From positions 47,182,001 through 47,246,000 of the forward strand of contig OZ296654.1 in NCBI GenBank assembly GCA_965655095.1: a DNA stretch of 64,000 bases, written 5' to 3'. Below are positions 7,701 to 23,394 of this stretch, piece by piece. The notes beneath the pieces are model-generated. The model was given only the letters and a program-made list of their open reading frames with translations. It was not told the origin of the DNA and made no database searches. The position numbers were made by a program, and so were the translations under genes. Numbering within the stretch: the stretch's first letter is position 1; each line of letters begins with the position of its first letter. This DNA comes from Haplodiscus bocki (lineage: Eukaryota).

Positions 7701-8614
7701 GGTTGCTTTCATTGGCATTCTCTCAAAATTAGGATAACAGAACGACATCATGAGGACAAAAATATTTTTGAGTTGGATTACTTTCTTTGTCCAGGAGAAA
7801 CTAGACTAACGAAAAAACAGATGGCCAAGAAAACTTTCAAGTTTTTACTTTTCTGATAATGTTTTTTTTTCAAAAATACTTGATGGATCTTCTTTTAGGT
7901 TTGAAGGAAAGCTTTTCTTTCCTAATTGAAAAAGAATTTTAAATGAAAAGATCGATTTTTTTTTCATTTACTTCGGATTTTTTATAGCTTTCGAGAAAAA
8001 ATCTGACTCTTTTGAACCCTAAGTTTTATTGCAGGAACACTGTATTTTGTGTATTTTGGCATTAAAAATTAGAGTGCGTTAACGAGTTTCTGAAGGCATA
8101 AAAAAATGTGGTGGATGGATTCCTACGCACTACTTGAATAAAATAGTATATTGCGGATTTGCCACTAGCCTCGCTTCTCTCGTCTAGTAGCAAATCTGAC
8201 AATATACCCGCTCGCTCGTTCGCGTTGCTCACTCACCGGCTTCCTTCCAGTCAGCCTCTCGCTTATATTATTGCTCGGCTACACCTCGCCTTTTGTACAC
8301 TACTAAATCGTGAAAGCGTCTATATTGGATTTCTCAGAAAAGTGATTTCTCAGAAAAGACATAAACGCGTATGCATCAACAAGGCTATGAAAATTTAATT
8401 TTGTAAAAAAAATTTTTCATTTATGTATCACATGATGAGCTTTTATACATACTTTAGTATTTGTATATGAATTCATGTAAGTATACCTGGATTGTTATAT
8501 GAATACCATTGACGTAATGCGAAATGAAATGGATTTCTACGGTCATTGCAGTGTGTTTGAATATACTCACAATTATGAGCAATTCTTTTAAAGAATAATC
8601 TTTGACACATAGGT

Positions 8615-9173
8615 TTATTGTTTGAAGTGAATAATTTTACAATTTATAAAATCATTACCATATTCAACATCACCTTCGTTTTCTTCTGTAATATTATCAC
8701 CTTTTAATTCTTCCTCTTTTTTTATACAAATACTAATAATCGTTTTTCACTGTTGAGTTTTCATATTCTTGAAGAGGAATATATTTTTGATGTGACATGA
8801 AGTAAATGTTTTCTTTACCCTAAGCAAATGGAAACTTAACATCGTTAAAACCATGTTCTGAAAAATATTCTACAATTTCATCATATGTTTCAAAACTAAA
8901 TAATTTTTCTCCTACATGAACCAATTTTTTATTTTCAATTTCGAACAGAAAATTTCCATCTTTATTGTTTTCATCCGGTCCAAATACATGCAGATAATTA
9001 AAGCTCAGAAGTAATTCTATTTCATGATGTGGATTATCTCTATAAGGTGTTTTATAAATCTGAGCTTTTTTTAAATCAGCGAAAATTAAAACTATATATG
9101 TATTAAATCTATTATGTGTTAACACACAGGTTTCGGGGTTATTTAATCCTGGTGTTTCGATTTTATCATTCAT
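8615..9173 (-). pseudogene. hypothetical protein resembling a conserved giant-virus (NCLDV) hypothetical family; disrupted
   Basis: DGNFLFEI..KKLVHVGEKLFSFET.DEIVEYFSEHGFNDVKFPFA*GKENIYFM continues past the stop at 8820; family resemblance is from recall. Confidence 0.55.
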
Positions 9174-9192
9174 TTATAATACACAAAAAGTA

Positions 9193-9698
9193 TTATCTAA
9201 AATATTTATTCCACAACTCTTCATACTCTCTCCAATCTTTATCTTTGTTATACCAATACCACATTATACATTTTTCTGTGAAATCGGATTGAATCGGTAT
9301 ACAATAATTGTTTATATAGTCATCGTTGGTAACAATGTTCTTATAAAATGCTACTTCTAAAGATGAAAATGGTAATCCCAATTTTCAACGATAGCATATA
9401 TTTAAATTATCAATAGTACCATAATATCGGAAAGTTATCTTATTTATTTTTATTACTGTACACCCTTTTTTTTTCGCATTCTACACAGAAACAAGAGCAT
9501 CCCTGTTGATGTATATTTAAATATTTTATTCTTTGTTTTATTATCTTTCTCATCTAGGATTTTTACATTATATATCGTCTGACAAGAACTATATGATTGA
9601 ATATATCTATCGGAACAATCTGAACTTGCTTCAACAATTATTTCGTCAACAACTTTAATGTTTATATTATAAAAAACATATTCTTTCATGAACTCCAT
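9193..9698 (-). pseudogene. hypothetical viral protein, frameshifted
   Basis: Two adjacent minus ORFs (9453-9698, 9193-9381) separated near a poly-T run at ~9466-9474; TAAATG start. Confidence 0.5.
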
Positions 9699-10104
9699 TT
9701 AAATATTGTTATTCCGATAACAGCCAAATCTTCTATTAATAGTATCTCATTTATTATAACTAAAAATAAACATATAAAATGAACATTAAAACAAATTCAC
9801 TTGAATAATATGTCAACTTTGTTGATACCACAAAGAAACAAAATAAAAACTTATGGATAGGTACAATTATACTTGTATTTATACTGATTATACTTACAAT
9901 TATAACATTTAGATATATTCAATTATACTTGTAGTTATACTTGGGTGTACTTACAAGTATATGAAAAATTATACAATCATAGAAATGAAGTGATAGTACA
10001 ATTACAAGACTATTTATACTTAGTATGTATTCTAAAATTTTCATAATTTTAATTGTAATAATTGTATTTTTGTTTCTGTTTTTTGTCCTATTATACAATA
10101 TTAA

Positions 10105-19934: not shown

Positions 19935-20510
19935 TTAATTCTCTTCTCTCAGGAAATCATTTCTATCCCAACCGCAAACGGAATAATCAAGTCCTTCATC
20001 GTTATAATCATGATCATAAAGGTTATCAGGTACTGAACCTTGTTCGTTACTAATAATATTAATCCAAATTTTTGTTCTATTCTCGAGGGTATCAATTGGA
20101 TCATCTTTACCTGGATCTTGAAAAGTGTAATTTTTGTGATAAAAATCTTGTTTAAATTGAGCTATCATATCATGTCTATAACCATATCCCCATTGCTCTT
20201 CCTCATCTGGGTCATCAAACCACAGACGTATTGGAACATGATTTGTTATATTAGTACACATTCTAAAATATAATTTTAAAAAATCAAACAGTGCTAAATC
20301 ATTATCATTGCTGGTAAAAATCACTTCCCAAAAATATTTCTCAAGTTTCATACCTTCACCTCTAGTCAGTTTTCTTTGTGGAAAAAATGCTGGCCATTAT
20401 CCATTGACTTCTCTATGTAAATGTCTACTAGAATAGAGATGTTTATTCCATTGTTCTTTTGTGTAGAATCTATCACAAATTTGACAAAATATGTCGTTAC
20501 AGATTACCAT
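19935..20510 (-). pseudogene. C2H2-type zinc-finger protein, one internal stop
   Basis: MVICNDIFCQICDRFYTKEQWNKHLYSSRH in frame upstream of ORF 19935-20351. Confidence 0.6.
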
Positions 20511-20528
20511 TTACAAATTCTTATAAAT

Positions 20529-20819
20529 CTATTCAATTTTTTCTTCCAATGCTTTTAATTTATTTTGTAATTCAGCATATGATCTAACTAAGTCTTTAAA
20601 TTCTGTGTTTCTTTTATTTCTGTAATCATTCTGTTTCTCTAATAGTTTATCTCCATTTTTTTCATAATATATTTTTTGTTGGTTTGATATTTTATCTTTA
20701 TTATTCTAGTATCGTTTTACACCTCTTTTGATATTGCAAGCTTTACATTCTGAATATTTTTTGTAAAAGTTGTTGATCTGTTTTTCAATTTTACACACAG
20801 TGCAAGTTTTATTCTCCAC
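20529..20819 (-). pseudogene. small CxxC...CxxC zinc-binding coiled-coil protein, disrupted
   Basis: ENKTCTVCKIEKQINNFYKKYSECKAC followed by a charged coiled coil; internal stop. Confidence 0.55.
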
Positions 20820-20878
20820 TTATTTATTATGTTTTTATTGAATAGATATTTTTAATTCAATAAATTTATTCCTTATAA

Positions 20879-23394
20879 ATGAACAGTGTAACGATCACAA
20901 CTCGATTAGCTGAAAAAAAGAAAACAAAATTAGAAAAAAGAAAGCAAAATGAATCAAATAAGGAAAGAAAACGAAATGTAAAGAAGACAAAAAAGAGAAA
21001 ATATAGCAGAAGAAAATATTGACGTAGGTAGATTTTTCGAATTAGCAACAAGCAGTAAAATATATGTTAACAATTTAAACTTGCATGAAATTAAAGATGA
21101 AATTTTACAAGATTACACAGGCGATTTTGAGTTAAATGGATTAATGATCATTGGACCTGTTGAACATAAAACAAATATCAGATTTAAAAATATGGATGAT
21201 TTTGAAAGATATATAAACGCAATAGATATTGATTACGATTCTGAAGATGTTACTTTTACAGGTTATGTTTATAAAATAAATACACCTCATTTCAGTGTTG
21301 TCAGACGAAGCGCTTACGGTAGAGGTACTAATTATATGCAAGAAATTGTGGAATATCATGGACAAAACTGTTATATACCAACTTCGGGAATGTGTTTTAT
21401 CAAATGTAATAATTATTTTACTAAAAAACATTATACACAAGAATTTTTAACTTTCATCCGATCCGAACAAAGAAGATCTAACGTGATGACGTCAGCTAGA
21501 ATTCAACCATTCTGTAAAAAATATAATATCAACATCGGATGTTTTGATGGAACGAGAATAAATCCTCGAAACCTCACTCAAAAAGACACATCATTTTTCA
21601 TATATAATAACCAATTCTGTTTAATTTGGAAAACAGATGGCATTAGTTTTGATAAAGCAATAAAAGAATTGAAAGACAACTTCAAAGTTGTTGATAATGT
21701 TATATCTGATAAACATGTTAAGAGTTTTATTAAATATGAATACAACCCTAAGAAAGTTAAATCTCCATTAACCAACATAGTAGTGTATGATTTAGAGACT
21801 TTCAATAAAAATAGAGCTGTTCCATATTGTAGTTGTATATATAAACTGAGTAAAATTTCAGGTAAATAACATCGAGATATATCAGAACAAGAATAACAAA
21901 AATGTATGAATGATTGTGTTGTTTTTAAGGGAACTGATTGTATTAGTGAAATGTTAGATCATGTTTTATCATTCAAAGGAGAACCAAAAAAAATCAAAAA
22001 TAAAATTGTTGAATATAATCTATATCTGATAGCTCACAACGGATCTGGTTTTGATAGTTACGTTGTATTAAATAATTTACCCCAATGGCGAAGTGTTGTC
22101 AAACTAGTTAAAAATGGAGCTGGTAGTATTTCACTTAAAATATTCAACGGTTATGTGGATGAAAAAAAAAATTCCTCAATATGTTCATTTTAGATGTGGA
22201 AGAGTTCATATTAATAGGAGTTTGAAAAAAATAGGAGAAAGTTAAAAATTACAAGAAAGTTTACTTAAAAAAGAATTAGAACATGATGAAATTTATGAGG
22301 ATACTTGGAAAGAGAGAGAAGACGAGTGGTTACCTTATGTTAAAAATGACGTATTATCAACTGCTTTCTGTTATGCTAGATACACGATGGGAATGGAAGA
22401 ATTAACAAATTTTGGTATGAAAAACAGTTTAACGTTACCATCGTTAGCTAATAAATATTTTAATAGTTTGAGAGATTAAAACGATGAACCAATTTATACA
22501 TATACAGATCCTTTTATGAGAAACTTTGTACGTAAAGCAATTAAAGGAGGTAGATGTAATGCTTTTAACCAACATTATAAATCTGAAATTTCAGATGAGG
22601 GATTCAATATTTTTTCAAAGGAATTAAACGTTAATGGTGACGAATGTGAGATTTTGGAGAAGTATTTTGAATTTTTAAAAGAACACGAGAAACAATATGC
22701 AAAAGAATTCGATTCAGAATATGACGATTTTAGAGATATTAATGAAGAAGAAAAAACTGATTTTATTAACAAAAAACTTAACACGTTACCAATTCATAAA
22801 GAGTTGTCTAAATTAGATTCAAATAGAACTCAAAAGGGTTATGACGGTAATAGTCTATATCCTTCTGCTATGTGGGATGAAAATAGTGTTTATCCTAAAA
22901 TAGAAACTGGATTTGTTTTTAAACCAAATATGAATGATGTTTATGTAGAAGCATTCAACAATCAAACATTTAACGAAGATAGTGACGAATCTGCTATATT
23001 AACAATAAAATATTACAATCCTCTTGATCTTATATTCCAACATTTACCAGTTAAAGAAAAAGTAAAGAAGATAGAAGTTACCAGAATGAGAAATGGATAT
23101 ATCAATGACACATTAACCTCAATTGACATTCAAGAAATTGTTAAATTAGGTGGAAAAGTTGCTCGAATCTACGAAGGTGTTATTTATCGTGAGAACTTTA
23201 AAATATCACCGTTTAGAAAAGTTATAGAAAAATTATTTGCTTTAAGACAAAAATGTAAAGACGAAAAGACTGATTTAATGCAAGGGTTAGTTAAATTAAT
23301 TATGAACAGCTTATACGGAGTTCAAATACGCAGAGATATTAACGAATCATATTATTGTAAGTCAGAAAATTGGATGAAAACTGAATTTAAGTAA
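20879..23394 (+). pseudogene. polB: protein-primed family B DNA polymerase, multiply disrupted and 3'-truncated
   Basis: ExoI VYDLETF, ExoII AHNGSGFD, ExoIII YVKND, motif A YDGNSLYPSAM, motif B KLIMNSLYG; motif C (DTDS) absent. Confidence 0.93.

Follow-up and report, generated by a model that had tools for sequence, protein, structure and literature searches.

Which polymerase copies an integrated virus genome, and what ties that polymerase to the ends from which copying starts? The question is raised by a locus in Haplodiscus bocki (assembly GCA_965655095.1, contig OZ296654.1, positions 47,182,001 to 47,246,000), a stretch of 64,000 nucleotides that was analysed whole and is called the window below. 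By its gene content the virus-like element it contains is a Polinton/Maverick, with a protein-primed DNA polymerase B (pPolB), an rve integrase, a double jelly-roll (DJR) major capsid protein (MCP) and an A32-type ATPase. A preliminary description had called it a Polinton-like virus (PLV); because pPolB and the rve integrase are both present, it is a Polinton proper under the definition in PMC11161782. Comparison with relatives in the same genome shows one capsid-and-integrase module joined to at least six DNA polymerases, with the outer ~35 bp of the ends matching the polymerase carried, likely as its origin.

Polymerase classes on a shared module

We took 30 copies ranked at the top of the MCP search and compared their right halves; their MCP genes were 85–96% identical to that of the window copy. 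Their polymerases fell into six classes: A1 (n = 7) and A2 (n = 8, together 15 class-A copies), C (5), D (1), B (8) and B2 (1), the window copy belonging to A1. The A, C and D polymerases were mutually 37–46% identical, gave no blastp match to B or B2, and formed one well-supported group in a tree of 15 PolB proteins from which B and B2 stood far off. An endonuclease VII-like insert is carried by B and B2 and is absent from class A, and the D and B2 genes lie in opposite orientation.

Polymerase class was distributed randomly over the MCP tree (12 changes versus a shuffled mean of 13.3) and was unlinked to the integrase tree (16 versus 17.8 shuffled) and to the subterminal gene, situated between PolB and the end (13 versus 13.8 shuffled, 25 of the 30 copies). 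The five closest MCPs (94–96%) include A1, A2, B and B2 copies, and two MCP sister pairs have unlike classes: L044 (C) with L046 (B), 97% identical in the MCP region, and L057 (C) with L063 (A2). The virion module was kept across all polymerase classes.

Element ends in relation to polymerase class

Of the 30 copies, 25 yielded a right end, whose type fitted the polymerase class in 24. Ends of A1, A2 and C copies start with (AAT)2 followed by class-specific continuations, and B ends start with (AGT)2. Class-specific similarity was limited to the outer 35 bp (0.88–0.94 within class, ~0.5–0.75 further in), and similarity between ends paralleled the polymerase tree, being highest between A1 and A2, lower for C and lowest for B. 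Some copies (L041:768; the ends of L064 and L084) have three AAT units rather than two, which we presume is what slide-back initiation would produce.

A prospective sample was selected by end motif alone and comprised 38 other elements (10 A1, 8 A2, 2 intermediate A, 10 C and 8 B, the B set being 8 of 10 planned and taken in shorter windows). PolB was seen in 36 of the 38, and in all 36 its broad class was the one predicted. The close subclass also matched in 8/8 A1, 7/8 A2, 9/10 C and 8/8 B elements, and a module gene was shared at ≥70% identity in 33 of the 38.

A proposed mechanism and the role of linkage

At the level of the class, replication is described as protein-primed from the genome ends, integration as rve-dependent, and capsid assembly as involving the ATPase and protease (PMC11161782, PMC4028283); the terminal protein fused to PolB is predicted to prime at the ends and to be cut off by the vOTU domain (PMC11161782). 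We propose that the outer 35 bases would be an origin recognised by, and co-adapted with, each polymerase/terminal-protein pair. Co-replicating genomes would recombine often, a single crossover yielding a genome with unlike ends from which the carried polymerase would fire only at its cognate end. The displaced strand would then fold back through partly similar terminal inverted repeats (TIRs), and the cognate end would be copied onto the other, much as adenovirus inverted terminal repeats are repaired by panhandle copying. In this way the ends would come to fit the polymerase, and the genes enclosed by them would still reassort; double crossovers around PolB would leave rare mismatches like L044, copyable in trans. 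The integrase does not track end type and would recognise only the A-R-T repeat that the end types have in common; it appears to accept both (AAT)2 and (AGT)2 ends. Panhandle copying would explain the matched ends, the free exchange of the intervening gene, the differing lengths of the TIRs and the stretch of right-arm gene found in the left TIR of the window copy (8455-8626). Our literature searches on panhandle-type end repair found no text.

We give even chances to the wider picture, in which the family would be among the largest Polinton expansions in an animal-type genome and at least six replicons, each pairing a polymerase/terminal protein with its cognate ~35-bp origin, would recombine as one population and trade one capsid module and an end-tolerant integrase, with panhandle repair refitting the ends. 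If true, this would be the first sequence-level map of Polinton origin specificity, the class-A origin echoing the adenovirus core origin.

Several observations weigh against a strict pairing of origin and polymerase. The match is not absolute: in L044, ends of B type with a 6-bp target-site duplication (TSD) enclose a class-C PolB. Because the first 30 copies served to define the end motifs, only the 38-element sample is independent; two of those 38 lacked PolB in the sampled 3-kb windows, and three had more distant polymerases (49–58%) together with more distant modules. In the 30-copy set, the ends of class D, class B2 and three of the eight B copies were not found. A2 ends have nine of 10 letters (ATAATATAC) in common with the terminal motif that binds adenovirus pTP-Pol (PMC2397415), a match that is short and AT-rich. 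On the capsid side, AlphaFold models of the MCP were of low confidence both alone (pLDDT 34) and with 117 close homologues (pLDDT 42), and the fold matches obtained are only supportive. Finally, the small Cys-pair gene just upstream of PolB was partly linked to class (10 changes versus 15.3 shuffled), and physical linkage therefore has some role.

Linkage could be taken further, as the whole explanation: right arms would be swapped as blocks and the left end homogenised later, with no sequence specificity of the polymerase. PolB lies ~1–3 kb from the right end, its Cys-pair neighbour travels partly with it, and L044 holds its C polymerase inside B ends, all of which agree with such block exchange. 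Linkage alone nevertheless fits poorly because class shows no link to the gene that separates PolB from the end and the class signal is in the outer 35 bases, the TIR past this tip being barely class-specific; we consider this explanation unlikely, and a polymerase-specific origin the better account of the tip.

Family size, insertion and selection on the capsid

An MCP search gave 24,574 first-look candidates, which is not a copy number, and the 100 that were scored were 85–100% identical. End-pattern matches in the genome numbered 2,534 (A), 795 (C) and 112 (one B subtype), with none for reversed controls, giving at least 3,441 recognisable ends; many were paired ~16–21 kb apart. The family therefore amounts to at least about 1,700 element equivalents. 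In most copies with both ends, TIR blocks were 92–100% identical over ~0.2–1.8 kb, and a 6-bp TSD was called for 16 of the 29 copies with both sides, in addition to L044. At G000 C6:11801906-11808705, two MCP genes (99.8% identical) lie 5.5 kb apart, end motifs recur at 5.5-kb steps at C1:62122326-62149562, and L039 has an internal duplication; these are tandem partial duplications or assembly artefacts.

Between distant copies the MCP had a ratio of non-synonymous to synonymous substitution rates (dN/dS) of 0.12–0.17. This purifying selection between lineages suggests that capsids were needed during the family's expansion. Alternatively, the family could spread as an intracellular transposon with its capsid genes as passengers, a possibility favoured by the lack of any relative of the MCP in IMG/VR, where PolB had four distant loci (25–30%) without other matching genes save one weak ATPase match, and by the family being known from sequence and not from virions. 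Among sequencing runs, no RNA run was listed with a match, and the small shares listed for four metagenome runs are not counted as evidence. Passenger genes would hardly be expected to show such constraint or to be retained with every polymerase class, and we think this alternative improbable. Very high copy number, and the resemblance of L044 to a PolB-only replacement, might suggest that the mosaics formed for the most part once elements had been inserted, through gene conversion or ectopic recombination between the thousands of copies on the chromosomes rather than during viral replication, but this is very improbable given that the mosaics have matched TIRs (several 99–100% identical) and distinct 6-bp TSDs, hence were inserted as mosaics, that the MCP is under purifying selection between lineages, and that conversion would not keep ends fitted to a polymerase it cannot align with.

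Comparison with known systems

The element resembles PLVs in its DJR MCP, ATPase and similar size, and differs from them in having pPolB and an rve integrase, both of which PLVs mostly lack (PMC11161782). With Polintons/Mavericks (Polintoviricetes, including adintoviruses; PMC8502044) and, putatively, their Beta-type virion module, the family has in common pPolB with vOTU, the rve integrase, A32 ATPase and DJR MCP, with a predicted protease and candidate penton genes, as well as long TIRs, the 6-bp TSD and a size of 16–21 kb. It differs in gene order, in having two penton-like paralogues, and in an integrase without the chromodomain that is typical of adintoviruses (PMC8502044). Alpha polymerases with Beta virion modules are known from the same work, where polymerase/virion chimeras are between species, whereas those of the present family recur within one genome. 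The window's class-A PolB falls outside the Beta class (Group 1), as it lacks the endonuclease VII insert that B and B2 contain. By their signature, the B and B2 polymerases look Beta-like.

The closest parallel is with nematode Polintons exchanging pPolB1 and pPolB2 (PMC10748475), in which deeply unlike polymerases occur in near-identical elements of one genome and are interspersed on other gene trees, as here. The nematode elements have two classes, both with Group 2 polymerases, and TIRs reported as highly conserved across classes, whereas the present family has six, some without blastp similarity, and its ends change with the polymerase. Vertebrate Mavericks have the end motifs (AGT)2, (AG)3 and (AC)3A (PMC8097293); the first is that of our B-class ends, and the (AAT)2 of A and C ends is outside all three. 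In stony corals, 1,676 and 1,724 polintovirus regions were reported in two genomes (PMC11131425), the same order as the present family although counted by other criteria, and the passages of that study address neither polymerase exchange nor end motifs.

PolB exchange itself is thus already known, and what appears to be new is that the ends co-vary with the polymerase. No report of such co-variation or of (AAT)2 ends was found in the titles and abstracts searched, a scope outside which most subscription papers, RepBase and invertebrate Maverick surveys lie, and the literature covered contained no experimental demonstration of how Polinton replication starts. With several polymerases that share a capsid background and are each tied to their own short end motif, origin recognition becomes directly testable. 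Classifications by PolB and by capsid can also contradict each other, even within one genome.

The window copy

The window copy occupies a GC-poor island at 8137-23388 (27.6% GC versus 36% in the flanks), in which 18 closely packed genes agree with the earlier count of about 18. Its features, with two that adjoin it, are as follows.

8131..8136, + strand: host hexamer adjoining the left end; candidate TSD (right end gone; relatives carry 6-bp TSDs)
8137..8626, + strand: left TIR
8137-8171, within the left TIR: class-A1 terminal motif with AAT-type start
8455-8626, within the left TIR: copy of the 3' end of the subterminal gene, which in relatives sits in the right arm
8618..9173, − strand: accessory gene; 2 stops, 1 frameshift; no Pfam match in open homologues
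9247..9698, − strand: accessory gene, distant paralogue of the subterminal gene; broken
10105..10539, + strand: helix-turn-helix (HTH) protein, likely a transcription regulator from its sequence; open; HTH_24 E = 0.002, a homologue above cut-off
10545..10880, + strand: conserved 112-aa gene; 2 stops; 24 loci
11116..11568, + strand: conserved ~148-aa gene; open
11543..11956, + strand: predicted adenain/Ulp1-type maturation protease; open; His/Asp/Gln/Cys motif order
11963..12166, + strand: small basic protein, possibly a core protein; open
12148..13213, + strand: penton-like protein 1; 1 frameshift; 37% identical to penton-like 2
13237..14331, + strand: penton-like protein 2; open; Atlas look-alikes are unnamed viral proteins (score 0.97–0.98)
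14356..14768, + strand: Zn-ribbon and amphipathic-helix protein; 1 frameshift; DUF5679 E = 0.098 in one of two homologues
14852..15380, + strand: membrane protein with N-terminal P(S/T)AP motif; 2 stops, 1 frameshift; SLATT E = 0.003, below cut-off
15578..16332, + strand: A32/FtsK-type packaging ATPase with N-terminal Cys pairs; 1 frameshift; Walker A and B; Pox_A32 in homologues
16404..17257, + strand: conserved ~283-aa virion-module gene; 1 frameshift
17265..17623, + strand: intergenic repeat cluster; inverted copy at 9889-10023
17649..18899, + strand: DJR MCP; open; PF21738
19051..19906, − strand: rve integrase without chromodomain; 1 stop, 1 frameshift
19953..20510, − strand: variable accessory gene; 1 stop; 3 loci
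20535..20819, − strand: small Cys-pair protein; 1 stop; resembles phage endonuclease zinc domains
20879..23388, + strand: class-A1 protein-primed PolB with terminal-protein/vOTU region, exonuclease and motifs A and B; 6 stops, 1 frameshift; truncated ahead of motif C
23407..25176, unstranded: solo long terminal repeat (LTR) of an unrelated LTR retrotransposon (TG...CA, 5-bp GGTAC duplication), outside the Polinton

The preliminary description had presented this copy as near-complete, with a short-form PolB. Neither holds: the left end is present at 8137, the right arm is gone, and the polymerase is short through truncation. It aligns only to residues 71-896 of a natural homologue of 1125 aa and ends upstream of motif C (YGDTDS at residue 964 of the homologue). 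Neither the PolB C-terminus nor a right TIR occurs in the window, 20 kb downstream or 10 kb upstream of it, and a pattern search for the right end gave 25 matches, none near the locus; as assembled, the window copy lacks its right arm. The proposed check for TIRs and 6-bp TSDs succeeded for the family, with only the left end retained in this copy. A 1.77-kb solo LTR starts 18 bases past the truncation and is followed by old repeats; its own 5-bp duplication and the 18-base gap rule it out as the cause of the break. Repeats at 59080-59728 were similarly rejected as a TIR of the element, since the match lies outside the TIR of a relative.

Judged against natural open homologues, six of the 18 genes are open (the HTH gene, the 148-aa gene, protease, small basic gene, penton-like 2 and MCP) and 12 are broken, by 16 stops and nine frameshifts. 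The MCP, penton 2 and protease are open as first described, together with three small genes; the account of one to a few lesions is too low for PolB, with seven lesions plus the truncation. Stop density implies a neutral divergence of ~2.3%, close to the MCP end branch (0.029), in keeping with the fairly recent inactivation that had been suggested. The open state of the MCP and penton 2 needs no selection because, at 24 lesions per 13,077 coding bases, their chances of staying open are ~0.10 and ~0.13 (noted post hoc). The dN/dS of the window MCP to its nearest copy is 0.75. Its private changes, 8 non-synonymous and 6 synonymous, are not numerous enough to tell decay from residual selection, and selection on this open MCP was rejected as unsupported by that ratio and by the chance of openness. 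The window copy is a dead, right-truncated provirus and an ordinary fossil.

Polymerase, integrase and virion genes

Pfam DNA_pol_B_2 (PF03175, organellar/viral PolB) matched at 22246-23391, and in the PolB alignment the vOTU Cys and His are invariant and Exo/Pol motifs are present. The N-terminal region first described as extra does exist, and by these residues it is the usual terminal-protein/vOTU part. The nearest named relative is a Macrostomum lignano polymerase (30–33% identity), and one Atlas cluster has a Parabasalia member. A distant relative of the class-A PolB, P0229, has a C-terminal extension with P-loop and helicase-like motifs. Pfam rve (PF00665) was above cut-off at 19340-19906; the 16 open integrase copies listed are 271–296 aa long, end soon after the core and match rve only, which extends the reported lack of a chromodomain to the family. 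A homologue of the small Cys-pair protein had PHROG endonuclease matches (E = 1e-8).

The gene set bears out the first reading of an endogenous virus with a DJR capsid and a complete set of virion genes, the protease and pentons being predicted members of that set. The MCP matched the DJR-like family PF21738 with 36.4 bits (cut-off 27), consistent with the fold first assigned to 17649-18899. With the better MCP model, capsids of Sputnik, iridovirus and PBCV-1 ranked first in a PDB fold search (E 5e-5 to 1e-3, TM-scores ≤0.2), and DJR capsids were common among viral-library fold matches. Homologue listings of the MCP and the 283-aa gene were filled with near relatives, and PDB sequence searches gave nothing useful for the protease, PolB or MCP. 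Two open ATPase copies scored 26.2 and 22.4 bits against Pox_A32, above the cut-off of 22.8 in one of two.

The protease, homologues included, had no Pfam or other library match and no PDB sequence match; its adenain/Ulp1 label is our assumption. Both penton-like proteins are candidate pentons by resemblance, as are the candidate cupiennin-like (14356..14768) and PZ/GasderminX-like (16404..17257) genes for their labels, no library having named any of the four. A P(S/T)AP motif was present in all seven listed starts of the gene at 14852-15380, in a search that partly used the motif itself. Presumably it is akin to ESCRT-recruiting late domains, and its position near the start of the protein hints at membrane-linked exit.

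Two families of AT-rich intergenic repeats, in direct and inverted copies, lie at 17265-17623, 9889-10023, 10882-11098 and 18912-19092. They occupy differing gene junctions across copies and are possible promoters, terminators or recombination anchors.

Neighbourhood of the element

A run of N lies at about 56800-57030, and degenerate repeats of ~170–180 bp with a short-unit repeat region are found at 58109-58914, 59080-59728 and 5535-7514; the short-unit region also flanks another Polinton copy, outside its TIR. The solo LTR at 23407-25176 belongs to an abundant retrotransposon (10,643 first-look candidates), and a complete copy of it at another locus carries gag/pol-like frames and a pair of 1.76-kb LTRs with 96.6% identity. 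At 51574-53953 lies a second, much older Polinton fragment, with pieces of the 112-aa gene, the protease and penton-like genes at 30–39% identity.

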